DNA of 57,549 bases, counting the filler, from Rhizaria sp. SCN 62-66 (Eukaryota): NCBI GenBank assembly GCA_001724265.1. It is 2 parts of 2 records of this genome, joined end to end, with 100 filler letters (N's around TTAATTAATTAA, not from the genome) between each part and the next. Parts side by side here need not be neighbours in the genome. Positions count along the whole stretch, not along the records: positions 29,465 to 57,549 come from MEDY01000391.1; 1 more part is not named here. One strand, given 5' to 3'. The position numbers were made by a program, and so were the translations under genes. Below the pieces are notes generated by a model, which saw nothing but the letters and a program-made list of their open reading frames with translations, ran no database searches and was not told where the DNA came from. Positions 16,101 through 54,563 of this stretch are shown piece after piece (position 1 is the stretch's first letter; the number at the start of each line of letters is the position of its first letter).

Positions 16101-17556
16101 CACCGGGCAGATCTCCTACGGCGGCCGCGTCACGGACGACTGGGACCGCCGCTGTCTGATGGCCATTCTTAACAAGTACTACTCGCCCGACATCCTCAAC
16201 GACGAGTACCGCTTCTCGCCCTCGGGGACCTACTTCGCGCCGCCTTCCTTCACCCACAGCCCTGCCGCCGCCGCCGCCGCCGCCGCGCGCGCTGCCGCCG
16301 CGTCCGTCGACGGCTCTGTGCCCGCCGCGGCGGGCGCGGGCCCCCACGCGGCGACGCTGAGCGACTACCTGGACTACATCCAGGCGCTTCCGGCGCAAGA
16401 TGACCCCGAGGTGTTCGGCATGCACGAGAACGCCAACATCGCGTACCTGAACCAGGAGGGCGAGGCGATGCTCTCGACGCTGCTGTCGATGCAGCCGCGC
16501 GACCTCGAGTCGAGCTCGGGCCGTACCAGCGATGATATCGTGGCCGATCTGGCGCAGGAGATCGAGGCCAAGCTGCCCGCGCTGCTCGACCGCCGCGAGG
16601 CGGGCCCCACGACGTTCCCTGCGCTCGACGGCGACGACGGCAACGGCAACGGGGACGATGGCACTGGCGCGGGCAACGGTGACGACGACGACGATGACGA
16701 CGGGTTCGACCCCGATAACCCGTCCGCGGCGATCGAGTACGACGCCGAAGGTGCTATTATCAAGCGCAAGAAGGTGGTGACGGACGACATGCTGGCCGCG
16801 TCGGTCGACTCGATGGCCGAGTTCCTCAAGCAGGAGATCGACCGGTTCAACCGCCTGCTGACCACGGTCAAGACCTCGCTGGTCGACCTGCAGCGTGCCA
16901 TCAAGGGCCAGGTTGTCATGTCGCAGGACCTGGACCTCATGTACGGCTCGCTGCTCAACAACAAGGTCCCCGAGCTCTGGTCCCGCGTAGCGCCGCCGTC
17001 GCTCAAGCACCTCGCGGCCTGGGTCGTCGACCTGCACCTGCGCATCGCGTCGGTGCGCGACTGGTTGCGCAACGGCAAGCCCGCGTCCTTCTGGCTCTCG
17101 GGCTTCTTCTTCCTCCAGGGCTTCATGACGGGCGTGCTGCAGACGCACGCGCGCCGCTACCGCATCCCCATCGACACCATCGCCTTCTCCTACAAGGTCA
17201 CCACGGTGCGCGACCCGGCCGAGGTGCGTTTCCCGGCCGAGGACGGCATCTACATTCACGGGCTCTTCACCACGGGCGCGTCCTGGTCCGACGACGAGCA
17301 GTGCCTGGTCGACTCCCCGGTCGGCGAGCTCATCTCCCCGCTGCCCGTCGTGCACTTCCTGCCCCGCGAGAACTACACTCGCGCCGAGAGCGACTACGCG
17401 TGCCCCGTGTACAAGACGGCCGTGCGCGCGGGCGTGCTGTCGACCACGGGCCAGTCGACCAACTTCGTCGTCGACGTTCACCTGCCGTCCAAGCAGGACC
17501 CTACGTACTGGGTCCTCAAGGGCGTCGCCATCCTCTGTCAGCCCGACTCAGCATAA
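1157..17556 (+). CDS. Axonemal inner-arm (single-headed) dynein heavy chain, DNAH6-like, about 4690 aa, 15 exons
   Basis: Exons 1157-2011, 2175-3893, 4065-4292, 4482-5642, 5820-6276, 6448-7400, 7572-7765, 7939-8143, 8283-9035, 9186-11810, 11994-13009, 13162-13344, 13533-13722, 13870-15750, 15898-17556 join in frame through GT..AG introns (14079 nt). Motifs: [12 protein letters not shown] linker, AAA1 [30 protein letters not shown]2 [17 protein letters not shown]3 [11 protein letters not shown]4 GVGGSGKQ, stalk coiled coil, [17 protein letters not shown], terminal [11 protein letters not shown]. The short tail with [18 protein letters not shown] resembles the DNAH6 group. The start codon is the least certain part. 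Confidence 0.95.
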
Positions 17557-29364: not shown

Positions 29365-29464
29365 NNNNNNNNNNNNNNNNNNNNNNNNNNNNNNNNNNNN
29401 NNNNNNNNTTAATTAATTAANNNNNNNNNNNNNNNNNNNNNNNNNNNNNNNNNNNNNNNNNNNN
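29365..29464. other. Artificial contig-joining linker / assembly gap
   Basis: 44 N + TTAATTAATTAA (stops in all six frames) + 44 N, exactly 100 nt. True adjacency of the flanks is not established. Confidence 0.95.
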
Positions 29465-29500
29465 CCCCCTCCAAAACTTCACCTGCCTTCGTTAATCACC

Positions 29501-32231
29501 ATGAGCTTCCGGACAAATGCATCCGCGCGCATCTTTTTTCCCAAGGCCCGAGGCACTCGCAAGAGCTATTACAAGCCCAAATCTGCGACTTCTCGCGCGA
29601 CATCCCCACGTGTGCCTTCGTCGGGCTCTGATTCGGTCTCAGACCCAGACTCCCACTCCCACTCTGACTCCGATTCCGATTACGACAAAGACAAAGACAA
29701 CATGCGCGACGCAGACGCTAAGTCTCGGAAGACGCGCCGCCGCAAGCTGGCCTCATCCAGCGGCCGCGCGGAAGCCCCTGTCGCTCAGCTGCACTTGCCT
29801 TCTCTGACTCAAGTCTCTCAACTACACGTAGCCTTTCTGACTCATGTCGCGATCACAAGCGCTGGCGGGCCTATCAAGACGAAGAACAAAAACGCGGAAT
29901 CAAGTAACGCAACTACGGCCACGGCCACAGCGGCTCTGCCTCAAGCAGCAGCCTATGTTGAGAACGCTTCTGGTAGCGCTGAGAGTAGTAGCAACAGCAG
30001 CAGTAACAACAGCAACCACAGCAGCTACGGCAGCAGCAGCAGCAGCAGCAACAGCAGCGCGTGCGCTAGCGCTGGTGCCTATGACCAACTGTGGACGCAG
30101 ACGTCTGCGTGGCAGCCGCAGCAAGCGAGTGCAAGCGCGGCCAAGTCCGTCGAGTCTGGCGAGTCCGTCGAGTCTGAGCCGGCGCCAGAGACCGAGCAGC
30201 AGCGGCTGCGGCGGGAGCTCCTCGAAGCCGAGGATAAAGAGGGCTACTTGAGTCTCGGGGTGGACGTGAAGAAGGCTGCGGTTAATATCGAGGCCACGGT
30301 CGAGCTTGCCAGAGAGCGCCTGTACAACGTGGCTCTTGCTGAGTGCGAGGCGAGTGAGAAAAAACGTGACGCCGAACTTGCGTATGCGCGGTGTCAGACT
30401 GAGCTCAAGGCTGCCAAGCACTCGAAACACGCGGCGCATGCGCGTAAGGCAGCGGCGTTAAAGCAAATTGCGGAAGAGCGCAGTGCTGCAAACAGTGAGC
30501 TTGTGGCGGCTCGGAACGCTCTTTTAAAGGCTGAAGCTGATCTGAAGAGCGTGGAGGCTAAGCTGGAGGCGGCTTTGCCCGATCTTCGTCGTATGTCACG
30601 AGTTTTCACAAAATACCGAAGTAATTGTCATGCATTGGCAATGTGTTCCCATTTCCCATTTTCTCGCTATTTACTGTTCTGTATTGATATCATAGATTAA
30701 TTTGATGCTTGCGCTGTTATTTTCTCATCATCTGACTCATTGTCTTCTGACATGCCTCTCTCACACACTTGACTGGTTCATAGGAGCACGGGCCCCCCTC
30801 GTTGCAGAGGAGATCGAAATGCTCACAACCATGCTTAAGACGGCTACTAATCAGCACTCAAGCGCAAGCTACGCTGCCATGGTTGCCCGCGCGCGCTTGA
30901 ACAAAGCAAAGTGGCAATTTGATCCTGACGATGATATGACAGCGGCAGTGCGACGCGAATGGCAGAAGGCCGAGTCTTCGCGGTCTGATGCGAAGGCGTA
31001 CGTGGCCTCCCTTAGGTCTCAGCTCAACCACGCACTGGACATGGAGGGCGCTCGGTCCTTCTCCGACATCTTTCTCGCGGGCCATAAGACGATGGCGTTC
31101 GACTCAACGTCGAAGTACTTCCACATTCTCGACGCACCCAAAGGTGCGTTCTTCCCCTTTGGCGGCGGCGAGAGTCCCAACGACGCGCCGGTGCAGCGCT
31201 TGCTTCTGCGCAAGTCACACAACGGTCTGTATAGTCTGCTCCTGGCTCAGCTGCGCGCGCGCAAAGCAGGCCAGGCAGGGGCGGGGCGAACGTTTCTCGT
31301 GCGCGGCCCGCCCGGTACTGGCAAGTCTGCGATGCTCAACTTGGTGTGGTACATTGCGCGGTTTAAGCTCGGCATGAATGTCATATGTCACTACCCCAAC
31401 AACGACGTGCACCTTTACTGCGCCAACGATGATGCGTACAACCCTGTGGAAAAGCTCCGAGGCCAGGACGAGGCAAAGTGCTGGATGCTAAAGGAAGACA
31501 CCGTATACCTTTTCGACTCTGGCAAGAACGGCAACGCGCCGATCTACACTGCGACGGGCAAAGCAATAAGCGTGCTTACAACCGCGCCGTACGTGGGGCA
31601 CTATCGTGTGGTGTGTCAAACGGCGGTCGGTGGCATCGCTTGCGACAAGAGAGTGCATCCACTGTGGTCCTTTGCCTGGGAGACTGCGGAGATCACAGAG
31701 GCGTTCACACTCTTGCGCAAGGTGTACTCACCCCTAGTTGGCGAGGTTGTCGCGCGTGTCAAAGGCGACTTTAGATTCGCCCTTGAAACCGCAGACGGAC
31801 ATCACAGCACAGAGACTGTGCGTGAAGGCTTGAAGAATGCCGTTGACACGATTGGGGCGAAGGCACTTGACGAGCTGAGCCATTGCAGCGACGCTGCAGG
31901 GTTGATTGATGCCCTGTATGTCGATAACAGCATCAGCACCAAGGCGTTCAAGAATGTGCACTGGCTCTTGACAATCGTGCCAACGCCAAGCAGCGAGGCT
32001 CCGATCGTGTGGTCGCCTCAGGCGTGGCTCGACGACAACTCACGCGGCGGCGAGCTGCACACTGATGTTTGCAAGACACACGGATCAGCGTATGGGTGCC
32101 GCCACTTAAAGTGTAGCCTCGCCTGGGTGAACCCGGATGCTCCGCGGCTGCTTCGGAGCAAGTTCAGAACACCTGGAACTTCTTATAAGGTGAGCGCTAT
32201 GATTGATTTGATATCAGGTGATGCTCAATGA
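29501..32231 (+). CDS. Coiled-coil plus P-loop NTPase protein, Crinkler/RHS (CR)-NTPase-like, about 845 aa, 2 exons
   Basis: Exons 29501-30590 and 30784-32231 join in frame (GTATGT..TAG intron). Walker A FLVRGPPGTGKS, Walker B-like VYLFD, then VLTTAPYVGHY and WSFAWETAEI, which parallel the SSP..Y and MPxWSxxEL motifs recalled for CR-NTPases. The start may be incomplete because it lies near the contig edge. Confidence 0.65.
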
Positions 32232-32743: not shown

Positions 32744-35700
32744 TCACTGCATATGTTTCGCAAAATTGGAACCAGCAGACTCAGTACCCGCATTATCACT
32801 CGCAACAGCAGCAGCATCAGCAGTTCCAGTCTTGGCACTTACATTGGCACTCGAATTAACAGGACTCGGAGTGGCAATGTTGCCGTTAGAAGCGCTAATG
32901 CCAGGAGTCGCAGTATGAGGACTGACGCTCGCAATAGAAGTAGCAGCGCCAGAAGCAGCGCCACTTGCAGTAGCAACAGCAGCAGGAGCAGCAGCAGCAG
33001 CAGCAGCAGGAGAGTTACTAATTGCACTCGAATTCGCCGCGATGGCTGGCGCAACAGCAGGCATAGCAGCTGCTGTCACCGCGACAGTTGCCTTCTGCTG
33101 TTGCTGTTGCTGCTGTTGTAACGCAAGTAGACGCTGATGCTGCTCCTGCTGCTGCCGCAGCTGCTGCTGTTGTTGCTGGAACAAGAGCTGCTGCTGCTGA
33201 TGCTGCTGTTGCAATTGCTGCTGTTGATGCTGTTGTTGCTGCGAGTAATAGTATTGTTGTTGTTGTTGTTGTTGCTGCTGCTGCTGTTGCTGCGTCTGTT
33301 GCTGTTGTGCGCTAGGGTTCAACAGAGGGGTATTGCTGTTGAAACTCCCAGTAACGCCCATATTGCCGTTGAACTGGCCGCCGTAGCTATAGTTATTCCC
33401 GCCGTAAAAGTTATTGTTTGTCGCAGCAGCGGATGCGGCAGCAGCAGCGGCGGCAGCAGCGGCGGCCGAGGCGGCGGCGGCAGAGGTCGCAAACAGACTG
33501 AACCTGTTCAGGCTCGTCGTGCTATCGCTCTCGAGCTCTCCTTCGCGGATGTAATCAAATCCTGGGTAATGGAGCTCGCTGCCGCGCGGCATCTCATAGT
33601 GGAACAAGTCGTACTGAGAAGAGGCGTTTCGACTGGCCACGACGGCGGTGTTGGCGCCGGCATTACCGCCGCCGCCGCCAGCGGAAGTGAGAGCGTTCGA
33701 GTTCGCGCTATGCCCACTGTTGGCCGCATTGCCACCGCTGCCGCCGCTGTTGTTGATGGCGTTGTTGGCAGCGGCCTTGTTGGCGGCGGCGACCAGCGCC
33801 GCGGCCGCCGCCTCCGGCCGCGTCTGCTGTAACCAGGCGTGCTTCTTCGCGGCTTCCTCGACGGCGACCGCCTCGGCCCAGTCCTGGGGGTCAAACGCTG
33901 GCGGCGTGGCCGTGAACTGCGCGTCGAAGTGGCTCGCATCCTCGTCAGACTGCAGCGGGGGCTCGAACGGCGGCCGCAGAGACCGGTTATGCACAGCGTC
34001 CCAGTCCACGAAGGCGAAAAACGCGTGTGAGCGCAGCGCTTCGGCTGTGCGGAGACGCTTGCGGACGTTGCGCTCCAGCAGCCCGCGGAGCAGGGATTGG
34101 GCGGCCGGGGTCAGGTAGGGCGGGATGCGGAGCACGTCGTGCATCGTCTGAAATGACAAAACACAGAATTTAAAGGATATATCGCGGTGTGAGAGAAAAT
34201 TAACAAAGGATATAGCAACAAAGGAAAATTAAGCACCAGATTGTAAAATTTCGATTCCAATGGATATATGTCGTCAAAAGTTATGTTTTAGATACTGACC
34301 TTGTGGTAGAGCCGCTCTGGGTTCTGGTGGTAAAACGGCGGCTGCCCCGTCAACAGCTCATAGAGCACGACGCCCAGCGAGTAGAAGTCGGCCGCCTTGC
34401 CGTGGCCGGCACGTGTGACGACCTCTGGCGCCAAGTACTCAGGGGTGCCGACGAAGGAACGCGCGGTGTAGTTGTCGGGTACGTTCTCTTTGGACAGACC
34501 GAAATCGGTGAGAACGACGTTGCCGGCGGCGTCGAAGAGGATGTTCTCTGTGGGGAGGCAGCAAAACAGGCGCACAAAGCAAGCAAGAGAGGGATTAAGA
34601 GTGAGTAAGTTGTGTTGTGTCAGCTTCGTAACAATCACACAGAGATAACGAAAAAAGAACATGCTTCAAAAACCGTGATATTATGAAGTGAAATGAAATG
34701 CTATGTTTTGGTCGCATATATAGGATATATAAACACGTACCAGGCTTGAGATCGCGGTACACAACGTTACGGTCGTGCAAATACTCCACCGCTGCGATGA
34801 TTTGACAAGCGTAAAAACGCATCTTATGCTCCTGGAAGGGACCCGACTTCGTCAAGTGGTAGTACAGCTCGCCGCCGGGGCAGTAGTCGATCAGCAAGTA
34901 CAGGTTGCGGCTCGTTTGGAACGCATACCGCAGCTTAACCACAAACGGCGAGTCTAACCGTTCGAGCAATGTGCGCTCGGTCTTCGAGTGCTCGATTTGA
35001 CCGCGGCTGCGGATGTCCGACTTGCGCAGCACTTTCATCGCGTAAACTTTGCCCGTTGCTCGGCGGCGCACCAGCAGCACCTGCAAGCAAGTAGGCGCAC
35101 AAATGAGAAGAGTTAAAAGAAAAGTTTAGAGAATAGTATTTTCAAAATAAGATGATGTGACTAGGAAACGTATGAATAGTGTAAATATGAAATAAAAAAT
35201 ACTCACATATGAAATATTTGCGCAATAAATGTTAATATACGCGAGATAGACCGCGTTTTGTTAAGACAAGAGAGACGTACCTGACCGAAGCTGCCTTGTC
35301 CGAGCAGCTTCAAGGGGATAAACGCCGTCAGCAGCGGCGGCAACGGCCCCGGCGGGCGTGGCACCAGCGTTGGCAGCAGCGGCAGCGCGGCGGCCGCAGC
35401 GGCGGCGGCCGCGGCGGCGGCGGCGGCGGCGATGGCGGTGTTGATGACGGTCGTTGAGGTGGAGGAGAGGAAGCTGCTGGCGTCGGTCAAGGTGGGGAAA
35501 CGGGGCTGAGGCTGGAACAGAGTCACCTGCTGCTGCAACTGCTGCTGTTGCTGCTGCTGTTGTTGTTGTTGTTGTTGTTGTTGTTGATGTTGATGTTGCA
35601 GCAGCTGTTGTTGCTGCTGGAGCTGGAGCTGCGTAAACGCAGCGGCGTCATTGCTGCCGGCAAACATCTGGGCGTTGGCATTGCCACCAAAATTGGCACT

Positions 35701-36457
35701 CATCACAGTATTGCTCATCATGTTCGCGTTGTTGTTGTACGGCACCATTGCGCCTGACTGCTGCTGAAGTGGGATGAAAGGATTACTGCTGAACTGAGTC
35801 GTATTGTTGTTATTGTTGTTGTTGTTGTTGTTGTTGTTAGCGCTGGTATTGCTCGCAGAACTGTTGATGTACGGGTTAACCACGGTGAATGGACTTGCGA
35901 CTGTTCCTGCTGCTTGAGCGGTCGTGGCCACTAGAGCATTGCTCGAGCTAGGATAAACACCAACAGAGCTTGCGCTCAAGGTGTTACCGTTATTCGCAGC
36001 AGCAGCGGCAGCAGCAGCGGCGGCAAATGCATTGTTGCTGTTATTGTTATTGATAATAACAGCATTGTTTGCATTGGTAACAAACGGCATCGACTGATGT
36101 TGCTGCTGTTGCTGGAAGTGACTGTGAGCACCGGCACCAGCAGCGCCGCCAGTGTAAATACCCCCGGGCATGTAAGTACCCTGCGCGAAGTGGCCGTGAG
36201 CGCCAGGGGCACCGCCGATAACCACCGCATTGTTCGCATTACTCAGCAAATACGGGTTGGCAGTCGCAACATGACTCACCGTAACCGCGGCATTGTTGTT
36301 GTTACTAGCCAGATTATTGTTATTAGTGTGATTATTCTTAATATTGTTGTTGTTGTTATAGGAGGACATGCTGCTATTGCTCGTGCTGCTGCCAACGCCG
36401 ACAACGCTGTTTGCGTTGTTAGCAGCAGTGGCAGTGGGGTTGCTGCTGGCGCTAGCA

Positions 36458-36489
<32 letters not shown>

Positions 36490-39400
36490 AAGAAGCCGCT
36501 GGTAGCTGCTGCTCGCCGCGTTGGCCCCGCCGTTGGTGTTGTTGGAGATGATGCTGCGGATGCCGCTGCCGGCGGCGCTGCCGACGACGCTGACACCGCT
36601 GCTAACAGCAGCAGCAGCAGCATTGCCAGCACCAGTGCCTGTGTTGGTCACTGCCGTAGAGGTGCCATGAGCTGAGGCGCTTGCTTGGTGCTTTTTGTTG
36701 ATATTTTGCCAAACTCCCATGACAACAGGGTTATTGGTGCCACCCTGATTCGCGGACGCAGCAGAAGCAGCAGTGGCAAGGCCGCCAGGAGTGCTCGCAG
36801 TGGCATTGGCAGTGTTCATAACGGGCATATGCGCGGTTTGGAGCAACTGCTGCTGTGTCATGTAAGCACCCTTACCCGGGTAAGTAGACGGTGTAAGGGC
36901 CCGCGGGTCGGAGGCGTCTAAGTACACCCCGGCGGCGTTGGTACTTACAACACCGTAAGCATTGACGTTGCCGTTGACTGCAATCGTCGTGAAAGAGGTA
37001 TTCATTGCCGCCTGAGTGCCATTCATGTGCTTAGGATTAGCAATAACACTCGTGTTAGAGGCAGCAACAACAGTTTTGCTCATGTTAGTGTTAGCATACG
37101 CAAAGTTGTTGTTGTTGTTGTTGCTGTTATTCGTAACGTGCTTGTTGTTGATGTTGTTAGCGTTGAGCTTATTCAGGCGAATGCTGTTGTTATACTCAGC
37201 ATTGCTCACGAGACCGAGGTTGTTGTTATTGCCCATCCCAGCAACAGTACTGTTGTTGACGTTGTTGTGGACGCCATCCTCCTCCTCATCGTCGTCGTCG
37301 TCGTCGCCGTCGCTGTCGCCATCGCCGTCGCCGCTTAAGCTGCCGGTGTCAGCATCACCGCCGCTGCCGTTGCCGCCGCGGTTGGCGTCGCCGCCGCGGT
37401 TGGCGTCGCCGCCGCCGCGGACAACGACAACGCCGGCGGCGTTCGTCACCAAGCCGTGCTGCTGCTGGAGCTGCAGCTGCTGGAGCTGCAGTTGCTTATG
37501 CTTGCTCAAGTTCGGAACAACGACAACGCCGCCAGCACCGCTAACAACGTTTTGGTTATTCCGGTAATGATTAATGTTGTTATTGTAACCGTTAAACCTG
37601 TTATTATTGTTGTTGGTGGTGTGGGCAACAGCTGCATTCTCCTGCTGTGTCACCGCGCGGGTATTGTTGGCATTGGCAGTACTGAGATTATTGCTCTGTT
37701 GCTGTTGCTGTTGCTGCTGCTGAGTAGTACTACTTAGACCTTCGTACTTCGCCGCACCAGGAGCGTATCCGCTCAAGATATCAACCAAGAACAGGTCGCT
37801 CACGACGCTCATCGCCACAGCGACGGGCTGGTGGATCCAATTCGTCACAACCAACAGCGCAAACGTGCCAGTAAACGCCAAACAAGTCGCCTTCTCAAGC
37901 ACAACAAGCCGGATAATGTCCACATACGGGATCTGCGTCGACCCCCAAGCCGTGAGCACGGCAAGCAGCAAGCATAGTGCCTGCTCCGCGGGCGTCAACT
38001 GCCACCCTTGCGAGTGCGCGAGGAACGCGATCGACAGCGTCAGCGTGATGGCGTGCGAGTCCAAGTTAAGCCGCGTGCCGATTGGCAGAATGAACTTGGC
38101 AATCCCGGGCCGCAGTCCGAGGTCCGCGATCGCGCACCGCACCGTTTGCGGGAGCGTCTGGACCGAGGACGAAAGAACAACGGCCGAGCGGGCAGCTGGG
38201 AGCGCTTTGATCAGGATGCGCCACGGATTACGGCGTTTGCAGCCGGAAGCGACGAAGTGGAGGATAGGCAGCACCACGAGCGTCTGCACTGTGATTGCTA
38301 ACAAGACGGAGACTAAGAAGAACACCATGGCTTCCGCAGTGTTCGTGGCGTTGACTTGCGAGAGTTTGGGCACGAGGAGAGAGAAGATGGCGAAGGGAGC
38401 CAGACGGACAGCGATGTTTTGGATGCGGCGGACAATGTAGGCAACTTCCTCGATCACGCGCAACAGCGGCGACGAATGCGGGGCGCGGATGCTGAGGCCG
38501 ATGCAAAACGCGATGAATACAATACCGAGCAAGTTATCCGTCGTGGCTGCAATGAGGCCGTTGGTGGGGAAAATCTCCCAGAAGAGGGACTCAACTTGCT
38601 GCGACGCGGTGGCCGTGTTGTCAAACGGGCCCGTCCGCGCGCTCACGAGTGACGACGACGACGTGTTGTTATAGTACGCGTTGCTGTCGTCCAAGTCGGG
38701 CAGCACGTCGAACACGGGGGCGTAAGACAGCATCACGGTGTTGATGACCGTGAGCACGACGGCTGACGCCAGCACCACGGTCGTGATGTAGTACGCGTAG
38801 GTCATGTTGAAGAAACGGCCTCCGCCCTGGAAGCCGCGGAACTGACTCACCGCGATGACGATATTGGACAGAACCAGCGGGAGGACGAGTAACCGCAGCA
38901 CGCGCAGCCACAGGAAACCGGGGAAAGAGATCACTTTCATCACAGTCCACAAAGGGGTCTGAGACGGGGTGATGGCGCCGGAGCTGACGCGGACAATAAC
39001 GGCCACAAATAACGCAATCAGGGCAACAAACACCAGTAAAGGAGTGCCGGAGAGTAGGTTGAGACTGGAGCAACCTGCTTTAAGGTCGGCAAAGGTCTCA
39101 GAACAGCACACTTCGCCATCGTTGTTGTCGCCTCCGTCATCGTCCCCGTTGTCTTGAGGAGAGTTTTCGTGACCGTTTGCGCTGTTGTTGGTGGTGGTAA
39201 GTGCGACCGTGAGTGTCGTCGCATTATTGCCATTGTTGTTGTTGTTGTTGTTCGCGTTAGAGCCTATGTTGTGGCGACGACGACTGCGCTGCTGTTGCGA
39301 CGAGTGCGCGTTAGAACCAGCGATTGCATGACCGTGCGCATTACCTTGCGCAGTATCGGTGTTGATGTGGGCGCTAACTCGAGCGCTCGTCATGTGGTGA

Positions 39401-39604
39401 TTGCTCCCGCCCATGTGACTATGACCATTATTGTTGTTGTTATTGCTGCTGCTGCTGTTAACCTTGAGCGCAGTGGTGAAAGCGTGCCCATCTCCTCCTT
39501 GCTGCCGCGCGCTACTTAGATTGTTGTCGGGGGAACTTAGAACCAGCGAGTTGATGTCACTGAGATGGTCCTGCTGTTCCTGCTGGGACATCAAAGCCAT
39601 CGCT

Positions 39605-39641
<37 letters not shown>

Positions 39642-41283
39642 AGGACGGTGAGAGCTGCGCTTCCCCACCGGCGGCGATGCCGCTGTTGCGCGCGCTGCTG
39701 AGGTTGCTGCTGCTCGCGACCTCCATCAACGGCGCCTTGATAGCGCTCACACTCGAGGCGTGGTGGTGAGTGCTGACTTTGTTGTTGTTGTTGCTGTGCT
39801 TGTTACTCCCACCACCGCCCTTATTGTTGCTGTTGCCATTGCTGTTGTTGTTGTTATTAGAGCTGATCATGTAAGTGAACGGAGTGTAAGGGCCTGCGCG
39901 GCTGCTACTGACATCGGTCTCGTTCAAAAATGCGCGGATGTTGACAGCATTGCTATTTCTCGTGCTGGAATCAAGCGTGTTAGAATGGCTACTGCTGTTG
40001 CTGCCGTCTTTGTCATTGTCATCACCACGGCCACTGCCGCGGCCACTGCCACTGCTGCTGCCGCTGCCGCTTTGACTGTCATTGTCCTTGCCATCGTTTG
40101 CGTTGGAGTTGGAGTTCGTACGAACACTATTGCCATCATGACCGGTATCGTCACCACTGCCACTGTCGTGGTCGCCGTTGCTGTTGTTGCTACGGCGACT
40201 GTGAGCAGAGTGGCTAGAGCTGTAGTCGATGTAGTCGTTGTCGTCGTTCGCATCGTCATCATCATTCCCAGCGTCGCTTTTGCTGTTGTTATTGGCAGTA
40301 ATGCCAGCAACAGCAACAGCAGCAGCAGCAGGCGCAGGCGCAGCAACAGCTTTGTTGTTGAAGTACGCGTTTGTGCTGCCATTGAGAGCGCCGCTGTTGC
40401 TGAGACTAACGTTTCCGTCGTGATTTATAACGGCGTTGTTGTTGTTGTTGCTGCTGCTTTGGTTATAGAACGCAGCAACAGCGGCAGGTACTGGGGCGGG
40501 AGCAGGAGCAGCGGCAGGGGTGGTGAAAGCCAGAGCATTGTTAGGATTTGGCATCATCAAAAGGTCGCCAAACATACCAACGTTGTTGTTATTGCCAACA
40601 AACCCGTTCTGAATGTTGTTGTTATTGCTGCTGTTGTTGTAGGGAACATTATGAACCATGTTGTGGTTATTCATCATGTTAACGTTATTAGCGTTGTTAT
40701 TGTTGTTATTGTTATAGTCGTCGTATTCGTCGTAACCATAGTTCAAAACACTGTTTGTCGTCGTCACCACAACATCACTCGCGTTGGCAGTCGCGTTCGC
40801 TGGCAGCGGCAGCAACTGCGGCAACTGTGGCTGCTGCTGCTGCGGCTGCTGCGGCTGCTGCTGCTGCTGCTGCAGTGTAATTGCTCCGCCTGATGCAAGG
40901 GCCTCCGACGTAAGGGCCTCGGTCGTAGGCGTAAACAGGTTCGCAAAAACGTCGTTGGTATCGACGCCAGCAGCAGCAGTATTAGCAACATCGGCAATGC
41001 CCGAGCTGCCACCCTGAGCACCCGCGCTCGCACTCGCGGTCGCGGGCGCATTCGCTGCCGCAGCCGCAGCGGCAGCCGCTGTCACAGGCTCAGGCTTTGA
41101 TGCTGTTGGTGCTGTAAGCGTAGGGGTGAGTGTGGTGGACTCTCTGGCTGACACAGCAGCTCCATTCGCATCAGCCGCATCCACCGGCAGCGGCAGCGGC
41201 AATGCTGTAGCTGCTGCTGTTGCTGTTGCTGTTACTGCCGCTGCTGGTGGGGGGCCGGGCGGCGGCGTGCGTGGCACCTGCAT
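32744..41283 (-). CDS. SLC1/DAACS (sodium:dicarboxylate symporter-like) domain fused to an AGC-family Ser/Thr kinase (PKB/SGK/S6K-like), about 2660 aa, 4 exons
   Basis: Exons 41283-35281, 35080-34741, 34547-34300, 34147-32744 (7995 nt, in frame). Exon 1 is one stop-free 6-kb frame holding the transporter domain (~39050-37770: FPGFLWLRVLRLLVLPL, IFPTN, APFAIFSLL, SSSVQTLP, FILPIGTRLNLDS) and the kinase Gly-loop LGQGSFGQ. Later exons give YAMKVL, YRDLKPEN, DFGLSKE, SFVGTPEYLAPE and the AGC tail PPFEP..HFDAQFT. Confidence 0.88.
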
Positions 41284-44495: not shown

Positions 44496-46442
44496 ATGGC
44501 TATCTGGTGCATTCGCCGCGACCCTTGCGGCATTTTTAGTGCTGCCCTCGTACGTTTCCCTCCGTCCACAAAACGGAATCACCCAAATGAGAATATCTCG
44601 CTACAAAAATCTTCAGTAATGCTGAAACTTGACTATGTCTTGCTTCATAACATATTAAATCTGCAGTCGCAATATTTTGGTGATAACTCTTAACTAACCC
44701 TATCTATTCTCTCTTTTGTCGTCTCTTGTCCTTCACTCCAATCCATGCTCCTTGCCTTGATCGGCTCTTGTTTTACACCGCGCACTCCCAGTCTATCGGC
44801 CTGCTGCTGTACTCCCAATACGTCATCACCACCGTCATCCTCCTCCCGTGGTATGGCGTTACCCTGCACCTGTTTTTCTACACTCTCATCACAGTCTGCG
44901 CTCTGTACGCGCACTCTGCAGCCCAGTTCCAAGACCCTGGTGCTGTGCCAGCCTCCCTCACTCCGCCGCCGCTGCCGTCCTCTCCGATCCTCTACTCCGA
45001 GTCGCACCCGCCGCCGCCGGCGCCCAAGGTGTGCCGCCAGTGCCGCACGCTGAAGCCTGCGCTCGCGTTCCACTGCTCCACGTGCGAGCGCTGCGTCGTC
45101 CGGTTCGTACACAAAACAAGACTTTGACTGCATATATCGCGCTCTCGTGAAATAATATTTTGCTCTATTGTGAATTTTTGGTGTTCTTATTTTGTCGTTG
45201 TGTTTGAACTGTATGTGATCTCGTCTTTGGCTTCAAATCTCGTGTTATGTCTTGCTTAACTCACTCACGTTTGAATCTTACTTTTAAAATTTTGCTGTGC
45301 TTAGGATGGATCACCACTGCCCCTGGGTGAACAACTGCGTTGGCATCAACAACCAGAAGCCCTTTATCCTTTTCCTTCTCTACACCGCTCTCTGTTGCCT
45401 CTACTCGGGTGTTCTACTCGTTGCACGGTTTTTCTCTTGCTCCCGCCGCCCGCGCCAGTGCACCGTCGCTGGCGCTGGCACTGCGCTCTCCATCATCGAC
45501 TTCGTGTTGTGCCTCGTCTTTGGGCTGTTTGTCGTGATCATGATGATTGACCAGTTTTCGGCCATTTGGGAAGGCAATGAGGAGAATATGCGCATTTATA
45601 ACCACCAAATGCAGCAACGTGAGGCTCAGGTATGTCTCTTTGTAGCTTCTTTAAATCGACATTCAATGTCGTATATATTGACTTAATCAAATGACATTTG
45701 TACGGATATCATGTTACATTGAGTTTGATGTTTGCGTCTTCTTGCATCGCCTGTCTTTCACACCATGTGCTCTGAAATTCCTCTTTTGCTATTTTACTAT
45801 GGACTTTCTTAGGTCCGGAGCGGCATTCTGCTCGGCCCTGCCCCTGCGCCCCCCAAGATGCTGACTCGCTACGAAGCCGTGTGCGAAGTCTTCGGTGAGC
45901 GCTTCTCTTACCGCTGGTTTCTCCCCTTTTTCAGCCGGACTAAGCAGATCACGGCCGATTTCGATAACGAGCTCGAGAAGGCCAAGACCCGAGCCGCCGG
46001 TCAAATTAAGGCGATTCACGCGCACATTGCACTGCAGGAGCAGCGTGAGGCTGCTCTGGCGGCGACCAATGCGCAGATGAGGGCCGCTGCGAGTGCAACT
46101 GTGAGTGCGGCCAATGCTGCTCACGGTCACTCTGCTCACGGTCACTCGCACTCACACGATAACGGCCACACTGCTGCTGCTGCTGCCGCTGCGGCTGAGA
46201 CTGTTCACGGTCGCCCGGATGATGACGACAGTGTGGACGACGACTGTGATCATAATGCTGAGGCAGAGTATGAGGGCAACGTTAACGGTAACGATGCGAA
46301 TGATGATGATGACATCAGTGGCGACGAGGACGACGACGACAACAGCAACGAGCCGCCTCGCCGCACTGCCCATAATAACGAGGCGGGGGCGGCCAATGCG
46401 GCGCGCGCGCGTCACCAGCGTCCTAGCCCCGCCGTTGAGTGA
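44496..46442 (+). CDS. DHHC palmitoyltransferase (ZDHHC3/7-like), 4 exons
   Basis: Exons 44496-44549, 44792-45102, 45305-45629, 45813-46442. N-terminal WCIRRDPCG, DPGAVP, CxxC..[35 protein letters not shown], four hydrophobic segments, EVFG..F..WFLPF tail. Confidence 0.93.
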
Positions 46443-47526: not shown

Positions 47527-49210
47527 ATGGACACCCTCGAAGCGTTTCGCAGCCGTGTGATCGCGGGCGAGGAGTGCCAGCTGGTGCCCGAGTCGGCCAC
47601 CGTCCTCTTCAGGTTCGTCCCCCCTCTTTCCGCCTCGACCGCGCCCTATAACAAACCCGCCCAGCAACGCCCTTTTGCTGTCCGTTATCTCACTCTGTTC
47701 TCTGCTTATTTATGTTTGTTACATCTAGTGCGTCGACGACGTCGTTTCCCAAGGACGCCCCCCTGCCTCTGCGCATGCCCGACGGCACTGTCCTGACCCC
47801 GGCCGCACTGTGGTGCCTGCTCTCGCACCCCCAGGTTGCGCGCTACACCCAGGAGACGCTCAAGCACAAGATCCCCAAGATTCCCGTCATTCACCACAAC
47901 GCTATCGCCGAATACCTCCGTGGCCGCGTTGACACCTGCCCCTTCCTCACCACCAACGCTGCCGCCACCGCCGCCGCTTCCGCGCCCGCTGCGACTGCGA
48001 CGGCATCGAGCTCCTCCGCCGCCGTGGCCTCCGCGGCCGACGCCGCCGGCCCTGGCGCGTCCCGCGGCGTGAAGCGCCCCGCCGACGTCGCCGCTTGGGG
48101 GCTGAACGACGCGCTCGAGGAGGAGTTGCTCACCACCACGCGCGCCAGCGCCATGCATGTGCCTGACAAGTCGTTCTACAACAGCCGCAAGGCGCTGTTT
48201 GAGAAGGCAGTGCTCCTGGGGCTCGGTGTGCCTGTTGCGCCCAACGTCGTCGCCGCTATCAAGAAGGCTGCCGCCGCCACCGCCACGACTGAGAGCTCGC
48301 CTACAATCTCTAGCTCTGTTAGTTCAAGCTCTAGCTCAAGCTCTAGCTCTAGCTCCGCCGCTGCGAGTGGCGCGGCGAAGCCCGCCGCTGGTGCCGCTGC
48401 TGCTGCGCCCTCGGTGCTGCCGTCGTCACGCGTCCCCATTATCGTCGTGTCGTCGTCCAAGCGCGCCATGCTCTCGCTCGCTAATGCAGGCGCGTTCTTC
48501 GCTCTCGGCCGCTACCAAGACCCTAACGCAACCGCGACCGCGAGTACCAACAGCTCTAGCACCGGCGCTAACGCTGGCGCTGTTGCTGCGGGCGCTGCTG
48601 AAAGTAGCAGCAGCAGTAGCAGTAGTAACACAGCTGCGTCGGGCAGTGTCGTCGGTTTGATCAATGAGCACACTCTGCGTATCACCCACATCAACGACAA
48701 GGGCAAGAAGTGTGAAATCCACATCATCGACAACCCGGAGAAGCTAAGTGACCGCGACTGGCAGCGTGTCGTCGCGGTTGCGGTGACGGGCCAGGCGTGG
48801 CAGCTCGATCTCAACCGCGGGCCGCCGGCGACTGTGCTGGCGCATGCGATGGGCGTGTATCTGCAGTGGGATGGCGAAAGTACGCACATTATTGGATAGT
48901 TCCATTGCGAAAGCGAACTCGGGACCAACAAAGATTGGATAACTTTTGTTTTATATCAAAATGGCTTGATTTATGTATTTGACGATGTTTTATATTCTTT
49001 ACTTATTTTATCGTCTCATGATTTCATCTTTGTTGTCTTTTGATTCTTTCTTTTTTAGCGCCGCACGAGAACATCGCCAAGTGGGGTGTCAAGCGCCTCA
49101 TGGTGAGCCGCGCTAACCGCCACCGCGACGGCGCTGTGGCGGCCGAGTTCTGGCGTCTGCTGCGCACATTCCTATCCACCAAGCCACACGGCCAGTACCT
49201 CACGTATTGA
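47527..49210 (+). CDS. CDC73: CDC73/parafibromin, PAF1 complex subunit, 3 exons
   Basis: Exons 47527-47612, 47729-48879, 49059-49210. N-terminal MDTLEAFR..AEYLRG. C-terminal Ras-like domain PIIVVS..MLSLANA..FF, IIDNPEKLSDRDWQRVVAVAVTGQAWQ, KWGVKRLMVSRANRHRD...EFW. Confidence 0.9.
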
Positions 49211-50266: not shown

Positions 50267-53200
50267 TTACTTGGTTGACGCCAGCTTGGCCCTCTTGACA
50301 ACCTGGCTGACTGTATCACTCTCCGCAGCAACCGCGACACCGCCTGTGCTGATCGCATGTGGCTTAACTAGCGCGTCGGCGGAACTCGTGACCGTGCGCA
50401 CCGTGTTTCTACTCACCGTCGCCAGTGGTCCCGAGGGAGTACTCGCCGCGTTGGATGTGTTAACAGCGTTGGCAGATGTTGAAGGGAATGCAGCATGCAA
50501 GGCGCGGGCAGCCGACGGCTTCACATTGCTGACGATATTTGAGGTCATGTGACTCGGGCTGAATGCACCGGACGTCACACTGGCACCGCTCCCAGTGAGA
50601 TTCGCGTTATTAATCACGCTGTTGGTAGCCTTGCCCGGCGTCAAACCAGGGTTCACACCAAGATTCGCGCTCGCGTTGTTGGTGTTGCTGCTGTTGTTCA
50701 GAGCGTTGGATTGTGACAATGTAGGAAACGGTGAGGGGAATGGAAACGCTGACCTCAACGCAGAGCCTGGCATTACGCTCAATCCTGCATTGTTCGCCGC
50801 CGCGGCCGCCGCCGCAGCAGCAACAGAGATCAGGTTGTTACTATGAACCGAGGGCGGGGCCGTTCGGCTGTGTAAGTGTGTCGCGGGCGTGTGACGCACA
50901 AGCGGGGTGCGGACACCGAGCGCGCCACTTACATTCACGCCAGAAGTACTTACATTCGCGACAGTCGGAGCAGCACTATTGGCGTTGTTGTTATTGTTGT
51001 TATTGGGGAGAGTCAGCCACGAGCGGCCTGCCCCGAGGGGCGAAGTTAAGCCGCTAGCAGTTGCTAGGCCGCCGCGCGCGGAAGCTAAGCCGCCCGGAGA
51101 CAGTGGAGTCGCAACACTGGTGGCATTAGCATTGTTCATATTCATCGGTGCAATGCTGTTGTTGTTGCTGTTTGCAGTGTTCATCGCAACGCCAGCACCC
51201 GCGCCGGCGCCTGCGCCTGCGCCAGTGCCAGGAACAGCCTTGGGCCTGATAGCGCGCAGGGCAGCCGCAGCGGCGACGGCCGCAGCCGCAGCGCCGGCAG
51301 CGACGCTTGCGCTGGTGCCAGAGACAACGGTGTTAGGGGCTGGAGCAGGGGATAAGAGCCCGCTGTTGCCACCACTCGCTGTGGCAGTCGCATTCGCGCC
51401 TCCGGGAGGAGTGTTGCTGCTGTTGAGATTGCTGTTGTTGTTGTTGGTGTCGCTGCTGGTGCTGCTGCCACTGCTGTTGTTGCTGTTGTTGGTGTTGCTC
51501 GAAGTCAACGGGTGCGCGCGCAAACCGAGCCCGAGAGCGCCGACCCCGACACTAGCGCTGCTGCTGTTGCCGCCGCCATTGCTGCTCGTCTGGCTATTGC
51601 TATGACTGTGGCTGGGCGGCATCGGACTGCTACTGGCCGAGTGACCGTGAGCGGCCACAGCCGCCGCCAACCGCCCGGCACTCGCGGGACCCATGCTATT
51701 AACTCCAGCGCCAGCGCCGCTGTTGGCGTTGTTGCTGCTGTTGCCGCCGAGGCCCTTGAGCCGGGCAACGGTCGCGGCGGCGGCGGCAGCGGCGCTGGCG
51801 GCAGCGTTGGCCGCTGCGCTGCCGGCCGTGCTCGTGCTGCCGCTGTGGTTGTTGCTGCTGTTGTTGCTGCTGCTGTTGTTCACGGCGGAACCAGCGCTAT
51901 TGGCGCCACCTGTGCGGCTATTGACGCCCAGAGCCCCATTGTTGTTGTTGCTGTTCGCAGTGTTGGTGTTCATTATCGTCATGGATACAGGCATTGACGC
52001 GCTGTTCGCACGACGATGGTGACCATGACCGTGACCATGAGCGGCGGCGGCGGCGGCTGCTAGGTGGCTGTTATTGCTACTAGTGTTCGCGTTTAGACCG
52101 CCAAGGGTACTTAGACCGCCCGCAGTGGCGGCTAAGTAGGCCGCCGCGGCCGCGCTGTCTAACGCAGTGAACGCCGGCGTTGTCGCCACCGAGCCCGGAG
52201 CGCTGACACCGGCACTGACACTCACGCTCGTGCTGTGCGGATTGCTAGTGCTTGTGTTGGTGTGAAGCCCATTGTTAGTGAGGGCGGCGTAGGTGGCGGC
52301 GTTCATGGGCAGGAACGAGCCGTGATGCATATGTTGATGCGGATGCGGATGCTGATGCGGAGTGTGGGCAGCGACTGAGTGACCGTGGGCAGCAGAGGCG
52401 CTGGTGCTGTTGCTGTTGTTGTTGTTGCTCATGGTTGCGAGACTGTGTAAGTGTAGGTGCGACTGCAAATGCGACGGCAGCTGCAACGGGTGGCCGTGAG
52501 CACCCGCATTGTAGTTGCCCAAGTGACCGTGGGCAGCAGCAGCGGCCGCGGCGGCGGCGTAATGGCCAGCCGCCGCAGTGCTGTAGTGGCTATGATGCAG
52601 CGGGCTAGAGCTCGGACTCAGCAGATTACTACTCAGGGCAGCAATATTGCTACTATTGGTCGAGCTTGAGTTCGCGTTCGTGTTATTATTATTGTTGTTG
52701 TTGCTGCTGACTGCAGAGGTGAGGGCCGCGCGTGCCGCAACGGCAGACACGCGTGCACGCCTCGGCCGGTTCGCGGGGCCCGACGTGAATCCGCCCCCGG
52801 CCGCCGCGTCGCCACTCTCGCCCGCGCCGTCACCGGCCGCACTGCGCAAATGACTGTGAGCACCGGAGGCCGCCGCGGCAGAAGCAGCGTTGTTGCTGTT
52901 GACGTCGACGCTGGCGCGGCGCGAGCGGGCACTCACACCAACACCGCCAGAGGTACTTACATTCGGGGTCGCGGCCGCAGCATTCGTTGCACTGGCACTG
53001 GAGCTAGAGCTGCTCACTGCTGCAGTAGCAACAACACTGTTGTGGTTGCTGCTGCTGTTGTTGTTCGCGTTTACAGCAGCAGCAGCGTTGCTTTTGCCGC
53101 CGCCCTTGCCACGACCACATTTGCCGTTTTTGCAGAAAACACAGCGACATGCGTCTGAACACTCGACGCCAGCGTCGTAGCACTCGCAATACTTCTTGAT

Positions 53201-54563
53201 ACAACCCGTTTTCTTGCAGTGGCAGCCCTTAGGGTGCTTCACCGCAGTCGCCGCTGGGGTGCCTGTAGTACTCGCGGTGGTGCCAGAGGTACCTGTGGTG
53301 CTCACAGTCACGCCGTTCGCGTCAACAGCACTCGCGCTGGAGCTCGAGCTCAAGTCGGTCGCCGCAGAAGCAGAAACAGAAGCAGAGGAAGAGGCGCTGT
53401 CTGTGGTAGTGGAGCCGTTGTTCGCAGCGGCGTTAGCAGGAGCAAGGGCGGGGCCAACGAGCTCGCCGGCACTAACACTGGCGGTACTTACATTGGCGCT
53501 GTTGCCAGTCTCGCCATCGGCCATGGCAGATGTCGTGGGAACGTCGGTGGAGCCGAAGCCGTTGCGGAAAAAGGCCTCAGGATCACGCAGTAAAGCCTTT
53601 TCAACAGCGGCCAGACTAAAGGGGTAAAAAGTTACAAAACAGGAGATATAGAGCACAAGATGAGACCAAACGAGTCTAAAAATGAATCAACAAACAAAAC
53701 ACGGCAACTACTATTTAGGTTCAACATATTGAGTGAAGTGAGTGTTATATGCGGCCTATAGAGAGAGAGTTAACGCACCGAGCAGAGGAGTCTGCGTGCG
53801 TGTTCTTGCACCCAGTGCAGGCGCAATCATCACCACAAACGCCATTACGGGCGAAACACTCGCAGTACAGTTTCAAGCACTGGGACTTGCGGCAGCGGCA
53901 GCCGCGGTGGACGGTGACCGTGGCCGCGGCGGCGACAACGGCGGCGGCGGCAGCGGCGGCGATGGCGGCCGCATCAGGCTCAGCAGCCGCAGCCACAGCC
54001 GCATCGTTGTCGTCGTTGTTATTATCATCAGTAATGCTCGCGTTGCCGGAGCTATGACTGTGGCTATTGCAGCCGCTGTCCTTGCTGTCATCGTCGTGAT
54101 CGTGGTTATGAGAGTGACTATGAGCAGGAGCAGCAGTAGCGGCATCAGCAGCAGTCGCAACAGAGTGACTGTGAGCGTGAGTCGACTCACGGTCACTGCT
54201 CTTGACAACGCTGCCGCTGCTGCCGGTACTGTTTGCGGTAAGCAAGGCCGATGCAACGGGGGTAACCGGGGTGGCCTCGCCTTCAGCGGCCGCGGCCGCG
54301 GTCGCAGCAGCGGCCTCCGTCTCGGTCGCGGTCGCCGTCGCAGGCACAGCTCGAGCACTTGAGGCAGAGTCACTGGAGGCAGAAGAAGGCTCTGCCTGGG
54401 AGTCAACACGAAGTGCGACTGCAACAGGAGCGGGGGCCACGGTAGCCATAACAGTGGCAAGGCCAGTGGCAGTGGGCGCGGCGGCGGCGGCCTCAGGCCC
54501 AGAGCTGGGGAGAGTCGCCGGTGGAGCCTCCGTGGAGAGGGCAGCAGGAGCAGACGCACTCAT
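50267..54563 (-). CDS. Tesmin/TSO1/LIN54-type CXC (CRC) domain protein with long low-complexity regions, 2 exons
   Basis: Exons 54563-53779 and 53615-50267. CXC1 [34 protein letters not shown], hinge [16 protein letters not shown]2 [37 protein letters not shown]. Terminal KRAK may be an NLS. Confidence 0.9.

Follow-up and report, generated by a model that had tools for sequence, protein, structure and literature searches.

An SLC1-like membrane domain joined to an AGC kinase in a single gene of Rhizaria sp. SCN 62-66 and in two further predicted proteins

A four-exon gene in the Rhizaria window

The stretch of DNA analysed here (the window, 57,549 nucleotides (nt) of the Rhizaria sp. SCN 62-66 assembly GCA_001724265.1) carries a four-exon gene (41283..32744) that joins an SLC1-like membrane domain to an AGC-type protein kinase in one polypeptide. 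Positions are those of the whole window, and the gene lies on the minus strand throughout. Its joined exons come to 7995 nt in frame 0, or 2664 codons followed by TGA, and hold one stop only, at the end. Exon 1 (35281..41283; 2001 codons) starts at an ATG at 41283, immediately 5' of which lies an in-frame TGA, and is part of a stop-free frame of 2026 codons running from 41283 to 35203. It encodes an N-terminal low-complexity region (amino acids (aa) 1–732, 39088..41283; N 16%, A 15%, S 13%), then the SLC1/SDF-like membrane domain (aa 733–1175, 37759..39087), a low-complexity linker (aa 1176–1985, 35329..37758) built largely of trinucleotide-type repeats and, in the same frame as the membrane domain, the glycine loop FIPLKLLGQGSFGQ with which the kinase domain starts (aa 1988–2001, 35281..35322). 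The glycine loop occupies the last codons of the exon, whose translation ends in ...LTAFIPLKLLGQGSFGQ and is followed, exactly after the loop, by a GTACGT donor. The original prediction, which was made from the sequence alone, had already held that a transporter domain at ~39050–37770 and a first kinase motif at ~35330–35281 share one uninterrupted frame in a single exon, with about 800 aa of N/Q/A-rich linker between them. Each of these points stands: exon 1 holds both elements, Pfam places the membrane domain at 39012–37789 (aa 758–1165), and the linker is 810 residues long (A 17%, N 17%, S 9%, Q 9%, G 9%).

The remainder of the kinase is spread over three exons. Intron 1 (35081..35280; 200 nt, GTACGT..CAG, GC content 0.32) is followed by exon 2 (34741..35080), which encodes the kinase N-lobe as far as YRDLKP, including the VYAMK lysine and the alpha-C Glu, and matches Pkinase at 100.5 bits (profile 18–126). 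Intron 2 (34548..34740; 193 nt, GTACGT..CAG, GC 0.39) splits YRDLKP from EN, and exon 3 (34300..34547) continues from EN through DFG to RSFVGTPEYLAPE, matching Pkinase at 84 bits (profile 128–205). After intron 3 (34148..34299; 152 nt, GTCAGT..CAG, GC 0.32), exon 4 (32744..34147) supplies the end of the kinase, the AGC tail and an A/Q-rich C-terminal tail that ends in TGA at 32746–32744. The AGC C-terminal tail itself (33881..33955, with HFDAQFT within it) matches Pkinase_C at 20.9 bits, exactly at the cut-off. GC content is 0.32–0.39 in the introns as against 0.56–0.62 in the exons, and an alignment to P0152, an intron-less relative described below, runs without gaps across all three splice junctions and so confirms them.

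No PH, PX, C2 or other Pfam family was detected in the N-terminal 732 residues or the linker (E ≤ 1), nor was a PH, PX or C2 domain detected across the whole open reading frame (ORF; E ≤ 0.01). The C-terminal tail gave sub-threshold low-complexity Pfam matches only, with no PH, PX or C2 among them at E ≤ 1, and the window has no match to Rfam families. A hidden intron in the linker was considered as well and rejected: three hexamers resemble a 5' splice site, and no AT-rich block of the kind seen in introns occurs. The 100-nt windows of exon 1 with the lowest GC (0.34–0.38) lie at 40581–40760, at 36261–36380 and, in one case, from 37541, and the first two coincide with Asn runs in the translation.

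Fused relatives, origin and genomic setting

The same domain order recurs in two further predicted proteins. P0002 (1401 aa), the sole protein recovered by a word-index search for long proteins with this SLC1 domain, carries SDF at 294–698, Pkinase at 744–996 and Pkinase_C at 1017–1041 (21.1 bits). P0152 (1522 aa) is encoded by an intron-less single frame (8894–13462) on a 182-kb metagenome contig (L002), with SDF at 410–797 and Pkinase at 874–1126; it was found on three contigs from three sources, and the entry P0153 corresponds to its residues 216–1522. Kinase identity to the window protein is 68% for P0002 and 72% for P0152, and identity over the SLC1 domain is 43% and 39%, respectively. 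P0002 and P0152 align continuously over domain, linker and kinase, at 55% identity over 824 residues. The stretch between the Pfam domains, by contrast, varies from ~45 residues in P0002 and 76 in P0152 to 822 in the window protein. Because two relatives share the domain order and one of them has no introns, the fusion depends neither on the repeat-rich linker of the window protein nor on splicing, which bears out the earlier contention that it is not a splicing guess.

The fused family is small. Searched exhaustively with HMMER, a set of 1.84 billion representatives yielded 2984 matches to the SLC1 domain at E ≤ 0.001, of which the best was P0002 (378 bits) and the next, at 178 bits and 30% identity, was an ordinary 469-residue carrier. 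Pfam scans of 18 of the other 149 matches listed (the top ones and the long ones) found a kinase in one, the protein P0146 from a Planctomycetota metagenome-assembled genome, and a profile search for longer proteins recovered P0153 and P0002 only. Scans of viral and prokaryotic genome contigs revealed no further fused members, and an Atlas search with P0152 aa 355–1180 returned kinase-family clusters in the best 10 of 30 matches, none with SDF. Three contigs of 1.1–1.4 kb (L001, L003 and L004) contain SDF pieces and are too short to reveal a downstream kinase; L003 has the canonical TTT in the third transmembrane helix (TM3). Among the libraries searched the fused family thus comprises three members, and it appears to be kept in at least three uncultured eukaryotes.

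Trees of 85 SLC1-domain sequences place the three fused domains together. With FastTree they form a clade (support 1.0) whose stem measures 1.39 substitutions per site; their root-to-tip distances are 2.65–2.86, where the other sequences have a median of 1.78. The clade is found again with IQ-TREE (SH-aLRT 100, stem 1.10), which groups P0002 with P0152 at 94.7. The sister group depends on the method, being a six-member clade with FastTree (0.84) and, with IQ-TREE, P0003 at the base of the rest. That the three fused domains make up one clade on a long stem indicates that the fusion arose once and was followed by fast change of the membrane domain.

Full-text literature searches found no paper describing an SDF-kinase or SLC1-AGC fusion. 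The Phytophthora kinome paper gives TKL kinases as the only kinases with transmembrane domains there (PMC3019232), and the Saprolegnia genome paper reports an expansion of SDF and 169 novel domain combinations (PMC3681718). The original prediction knew of no described protein with this architecture, and the searches agree with it; in a broader sense, however, SDF and kinase do occur on one chain elsewhere, in P0146. That protein, annotated as 'cation:dicarboxylase symporter family transporter', is bacterial and has the opposite order, a Ser/Thr kinase at 91–343 followed by SDF at 372–786. Its SDF domain is canonical (374.9 bits, with NMNGT and D..RT..N..GD kept) and scores 90 bits to the window domain. 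P0146 does not group with the three eukaryotic proteins, and by these comparisons it is an independent bacterial fusion.

Could the fusion in the window be an artefact, whether of misassembly in the repeat-rich linker or of chance read-through from a transporter gene into a kinase gene? Two observations weigh in that direction, and hence against a fusion. Among the matches listed, independent contigs built from the short reads of other runs break off at the repeats and leave 35368–35847 and 36441–36501 uncovered, and no RNA contig among the matches listed bridges the linker or an intron. Given these gaps, it is the assembly, together with the open frame and the relatives, that vouches for the continuity of the window linker. 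The open frame is nonetheless hard to reconcile with an accident: all 810 codons of the linker are free of stops in the coding frame, as against 25 and 49 stops in the other two forward frames. Tandem repeats in the gene have a period that is a multiple of 3 in 16 of 16 TRF rows. Upstream of the glycine loop, at least 29 codons are open and Met-free inside an independent contig covering 34708–35367, so the kinase exon must extend into the linker. The relatives also argue against an artefact, as both have the same order with short linkers, one of them in the single frame of the 182-kb contig, and the window SDF domain clusters with theirs and not with unfused ones. We accordingly give an artefact hardly any weight, and regard misassembly in particular as a very unlikely reason for the fusion.

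Evidence on transcription is of a different kind. Contigs from a poly-A RNA library (a metatranscriptome) are identical to the window at 33490–33817 (exon 4), 37018–37307 (linker), 37737–37935 (the SLC1 end into the linker) and 38264–38633, and thereby lend weak support to transcription of the fusion gene; those among the matches listed leave the kinase exons, the introns and most of the linker uncovered. DNA carry-over is possible in RNA libraries, which is a further point on the opposing side. A second sample differs from the window at three single bases, all in third codon positions (two synonymous, the other K607N); with n = 3, this restriction to third positions is only a hint. On balance, we regard the locus as a genuine eukaryotic gene of expressed type that encodes a single polypeptide.

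Sequencing runs that hold at least 82% of the window's words carry bioreactor and wastewater metagenome labels. Besides the fusion gene, the window encodes an axonemal dynein heavy chain, a PPR protein, Cdc73, a CXC-domain protein and a DHHC-type ORF. Long ORFs on the plus strand at 4434–15780 contain DHC_N2, AAA_7, AAA_8, AAA_9, Dynein_heavy and the axonemal DYH2-5-8 coiled coil, and look like one large, split axonemal dynein gene; its presence indicates that the host is a flagellated eukaryote, one with spliceosomal introns. At 29417–32231 (plus strand), adjoining ORFs of 427 and 511 aa are convergent to the fusion gene. Neither contains a Pfam family, and the 511-aa ORF has a P-loop-like GPPGTGKS and no match in the PDB. 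ORF pieces at 44687–45686 (plus strand) with a CxxC..C cluster and DHHCPWVNNCVG look like an intron-split DHHC palmitoyltransferase. A protein with the Cdc73 C-terminal domain (47652–48899, plus strand) and a 1139-residue ORF with a Tesmin/TSO1 CXC domain (50267–53686, minus strand) both contain long Ala/Ser runs. Since the fusion gene shares such runs with these two ORFs, the genome seems generally prone to low-complexity expansion. On the contig that encodes P0152, the adjoining gene (14381–17215, minus strand) encodes elongation factor 2 (EF2) with a K/D/E-rich insertion (KKDKKDKK...). Its closest relatives, at 65–66% identity, are metagenome proteins of 941–948 aa; no named EF2 exceeds 68%, and the nearest named relatives come from a haptophyte and a euglenid transcriptome.

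The membrane domain and the kinase

The membrane domain of the window protein matches the Pfam sodium:dicarboxylate symporter family SDF (PF00375) at 167.4 bits (E 6.6e-49, cut-off 27.9) over nearly the full profile (5–379 of 387), and the corresponding scores are 154.3 bits for P0002 and 132.7 bits for P0152. Together with the Pkinase and Pkinase_C matches given above, this is the Pfam outcome that had been anticipated. The best solved relative of the window domain is EAAT1 (E 4.5e-27), with EAAT2 and EAAT3 also among the best. Hydropathy is compatible with an SLC1 fold, as the peaks of the protein that are not due to poly-Ala fall within aa 746–1165; other peaks lie at aa 321, 2424–2430 and 2559 and, in a poly-Ala run, at aa 1953–1966. 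The three fused domains nonetheless score low for the family, at 133–167 bits as against 255–450 bits for the 17 unfused relatives scanned, and the window domain falls far below every NCBIfam subfamily cut-off, among them DctA (62 of 513 bits), GltP (56 of 638) and SstT (52 of 308). The SLC1/DAACS identity proposed in the original prediction is thus upheld at the level of the family profile, but not in the sense of a canonical member, because the NMDGT motif and the TM8 residues are replaced.

SLC1 proteins have both termini in the cytoplasm, form trimers through scaffold helices, and move substrate by means of an elevator transport domain made up of hairpins HP1 and HP2 with helices TM7 and TM8. 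We compared the motifs of this transport domain, and of TM3, with an alignment to EAAT1 and EAAT2 and with 149 unfused relatives (residues below are listed in the order window, P0002, P0152, and fractions are those of the relatives with the usual residue). The HP1 motif SSSxxTLP takes its canonical form only in the window protein (SSSVQTLP, aa 1038–1045, 38149..38172) and is partial in P0002 (GSVTLSYP) and P0152 (GSSTLAYP). In TM7, the canonical NMDGT is replaced by NLDSH in the window protein (aa 1073–1077, 38053..38067) and by NFDAQ in both relatives, with M (143/149) changed to L/F/F, G (147/149) to S/A/A and T (122/149) to H/Q/Q. The TM8 segment, NWIHQPVAVAMSVVSD in the window protein (aa 1148–1163, 37795..37842), has lost D (129/149; now Q/Q/H), R (104/149; A/T/S), T (133/149; V/V/I) and N (136/149; S/A/S). 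At the HP2 tip, GSTQIPYVD in the window protein (aa 1114–1122, 37918..37944), an Asp that is invariant in the three fused proteins stands in place of the canonical Gly (115/149), and an invariant Arg and Glu are new in HP2b. The second T/S of TM3 has become V/F/F. Other residues are retained: TM7 keeps its N and D, TM3 its first T, HP2 its I-P and TM8 its last D. The same replacements are evident against EAAT1 and against EAAT2, and all three proteins have N-glycosylation sequons in the region of the TM3–TM4 loop.

We take the replaced positions to be those that hold the substrate carboxylate and amino groups, together with parts of the Na2 and Na3 sites, in GltPh and the EAATs. As substrate ligands and part of the Na+ ligands have been replaced, the SLC1 domain is most likely not a Na+-coupled amino-acid symporter. 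For the same reason, the 'ion/solute sensor' of the original prediction cannot mean the usual acidic or neutral amino-acid site. The loss of an Arg and the gain of an Asp in the region of the pocket would, moreover, argue against an anionic ligand. Some of the nearest unfused relatives, P0003, P0004 and P0006 among them, have a DRPET motif, with Glu (12/149) or Gln (10/149) at the TM8 position that corresponds to Arg397 in GltPh numbering; these carriers hint at a little-studied SLC1 branch with non-acidic substrates.

Despite these replacements the domain is not decaying, since HP1–TM8 is conserved to the same degree as its other parts and the three proteins have the new polar residues in common. 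Across the three fused proteins, 47 of 150 positions are identical in HP1–TM8 and 72 of 249 in the remainder, which is presumably mostly scaffold.

This evenness of conservation would suit a working secondary transporter of a non-canonical substrate, one whose kinase regulates its activity, trafficking or turnover in cis, and so would the residues that TM7 (N and D), TM8 (last D) and TM3 (first T) have retained. Substrate switching seems to occur in this SLC1 branch, as its unfused members vary at the Arg397-like position. Animal SGK1/3 and PKB raise the activity or surface expression of EAAT1, 2, 4 and 5, and there act on SLC1 carriers in trans (PMC9753149); a cis-acting kinase would be the hard-wired counterpart of that control. 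A cis-regulated transporter is harder to square with the replacement of all four TM8 and all three TM7 positions that are near-invariant in the 149 relatives, with the gain of three charged residues in HP2, and with the long stem branch, which suggests a functional change. Nor do the regulatory sites that might be expected recur: no RxRxxS/T site and no 14-3-3 site is conserved across the three fused proteins, and no PY motif is conserved among them outside the kinase fold. We therefore rate such a transporter as a possibility, and a rather unlikely one.

The kinase, in contrast to the membrane domain, has kept its usual motifs. As the original prediction stated for the AMK lysine, YRDLKPEN, DFG and APE, which can be read in exons 2 and 3, the catalytic motifs are all present, and this holds for the three proteins alike; in the window protein they are GQGSFG, VYAMK, helix C TER..E, YRDLKPEN, DFG and RSFVGTPEYLAPE (LAPE), with RSFVGTPEY as the activation loop. 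A search with the P0152 kinase puts Akt2 first among solved relatives (312.8 bits), followed by Akt1 (302.7), S6K1 (291.6), PKA (286) and SGK1 (285.5), scores too close for the AGC subfamily to be named. Judged by its motifs, this is an intact AGC kinase, closest to Akt/S6K/SGK/PKA and catalytically competent. These scores and the Pfam scans also agree with the earlier view of a PKB/S6K/SGK/PKA-type kinase devoid of PH, PX and C2 domains. The three proteins further share EL[HW]YP[GDE]FD[YF], some 140–190 residues past the kinase domain: YPGFDY in the window protein (aa 2391–2396, 33551..33568), with counterparts ELHYPDFDF in P0002 and ELWYPEFDF in P0152. We take this to be the hydrophobic motif, with Asp at the place of the phospho-acceptor. 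In that acidic form it resembles the constitutive PIF motif of PRK2, and presumably no regulated phosphorylation is needed at the site.

Another reading is that the SLC1-like domain is only a passive, possibly trimeric membrane anchor for the kinase, with neither a ligand nor a conformational role. The acidic hydrophobic motif would fit, as would the loss of the canonical binding residues and a linker that is variable and, in the window protein, extremely long. A passive anchor would, however, be expected to let HP1, TM7, HP2 and TM8 drift, and they are conserved like the rest, with polar or charged residues that are invariant and specific to this family (D, R and E in HP2, Q/H in TM8, H/Q in TM7). 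A 440-residue elevator fold of eight helices is also a costly device when a single helix or a lipid anchor would serve. For these reasons we consider a passive anchor improbable.

Function, known systems and significance

Of the readings weighed here, we lean slightly towards a membrane-tethered, probably oligomeric AGC kinase with an SLC1 module that has given up Na+/amino-acid symport for ligand sensing or regulated anchoring. From the N-terminus, such a protein would consist of a disordered region, the SLC1-fold membrane domain, a flexible linker, the AGC kinase and a tail with the acidic hydrophobic motif. The repurposed elevator-type module would hold the kinase at the membrane, probably in the oligomeric form common to every solved SLC1 protein, and would bind a different and probably non-anionic ligand. 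Because the kinase would be tethered to the end of TM8, it would be attached to the moving transport domain, and it might phosphorylate membrane targets according to the state or the clustering of the module. A complex prediction for two copies of the SLC1-like domain, in which the alignment went unused, scored 0.01 against a mark of 0.32 and speaks neither for nor against this picture.

Several observations count against a repurposed, kinase-bearing sensor or anchor, in addition to the gaps in contig coverage described above. The linker differs in length from protein to protein and shows no coupling domain, which makes tight allosteric wiring less likely, above all for the window protein. With linkers of ~45, 76 and 822 residues and no recognisable coupling domain, the suggestion in the original prediction that the transporter fold is 'wired directly' to the kinase is doubtful, and any coupling would have to run via proximity, clustering or reversible docking. 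That the transport and scaffold parts are equally conserved suits a working transporter no less than a sensor, and the Na+-type ligands that are retained would be compatible with ion-coupled transport of another substrate. Column conservation, with only three members, is weakly sampled. Lastly, poly-Ala followed by LPLLPTLV at aa 1953–1966 (35386–35427), shortly ahead of the kinase, forms a hydropathy peak of 1.97; if this stretch spanned the membrane, the kinase would face the opposite side. It is absent from both relatives, and is probably not a membrane helix.

A stronger version of the favoured reading is a single-chain eukaryotic transceptor, in which a non-acidic ligand would act through the position or clustering of the transport domain to switch the Akt/S6K-like kinase. 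Loss of the TM8 Arg and gain of the HP2 Asp would then point to a cationic or neutral ligand, either extracellular or lumenal. We put this forward tentatively, as an outcome that we think possible and would not expect.

Comparison with known systems shows which parts of the architecture are familiar. With the SLC1/DAACS proteins (EAAT1–5, ASCT1/2, GltPh and GltTk) the fused proteins share a full-length Pfam match, the HP1 motif (in the window protein only), two residues of TM7 (N and D) and the final D of TM8; they differ in N[LF]D[SA][HQ], in the TM8 and HP2 replacements, in having about half the Pfam score and in the C-terminal kinase. With PKB/Akt, S6K, SGK and PKA they share the kinase domain (285–313 bits), the AGC tail, the activation loop and the hydrophobic motif. 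The fusion kinase differs in that it has no PH or PX domain, bears an Asp in the hydrophobic motif and is tied covalently to an SLC1-like domain.

Transport folds joined to cytoplasmic signalling enzymes are known from the TRPM6/7 channel-kinases and from the P4-ATPase-like guanylate cyclases of apicomplexans and ciliates, and in the latter the transport-like domain is thought to be regulatory rather than transporting. These involve other folds and other enzymes, and none is known to involve SLC1 or an AGC kinase. The closest parallel in layout is CbrA of Pseudomonas, an SLC5 transporter followed by STAC, PAS and histidine kinase domains, which its authors call a rare 'transceptor' (bioRxiv 10.64898/2026.03.10.710862). 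CbrA likewise has an N-terminal secondary-transporter fold and a C-terminal kinase on one chain. It is bacterial, with an SLC5 (LeuT) fold, a histidine kinase and a structured STAC/PAS coupler, and is a proven histidine carrier with a canonical site, whereas the fusion described here has an SLC1 fold, a Ser/Thr kinase and no coupler domain that we could see, and has lost the canonical site.

A long-standing question in eukaryotes is whether nutrient carriers can double as receptors ('transceptors'). Where such cases are known, carrier and kinase pathway are made up of separate proteins, which makes their coupling hard to prove; here both reside in one polypeptide. The fusion joins a structurally well-understood elevator fold to a kinase of the Akt/S6K/SGK type, a group that regulates animal SLC1 carriers (PMC9753149). 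Among the three proteins, P0152 is a compact construct with which control of the kinase by elevator state could be tested directly. The shared loss of the canonical binding residues offers a natural example of an SLC1 fold leaving amino-acid transport. If the transceptor reading were true, these eukaryotes would link nutrient or ion sensing to an AGC kinase by a route that requires neither a PI3K lipid signal nor a PH domain.

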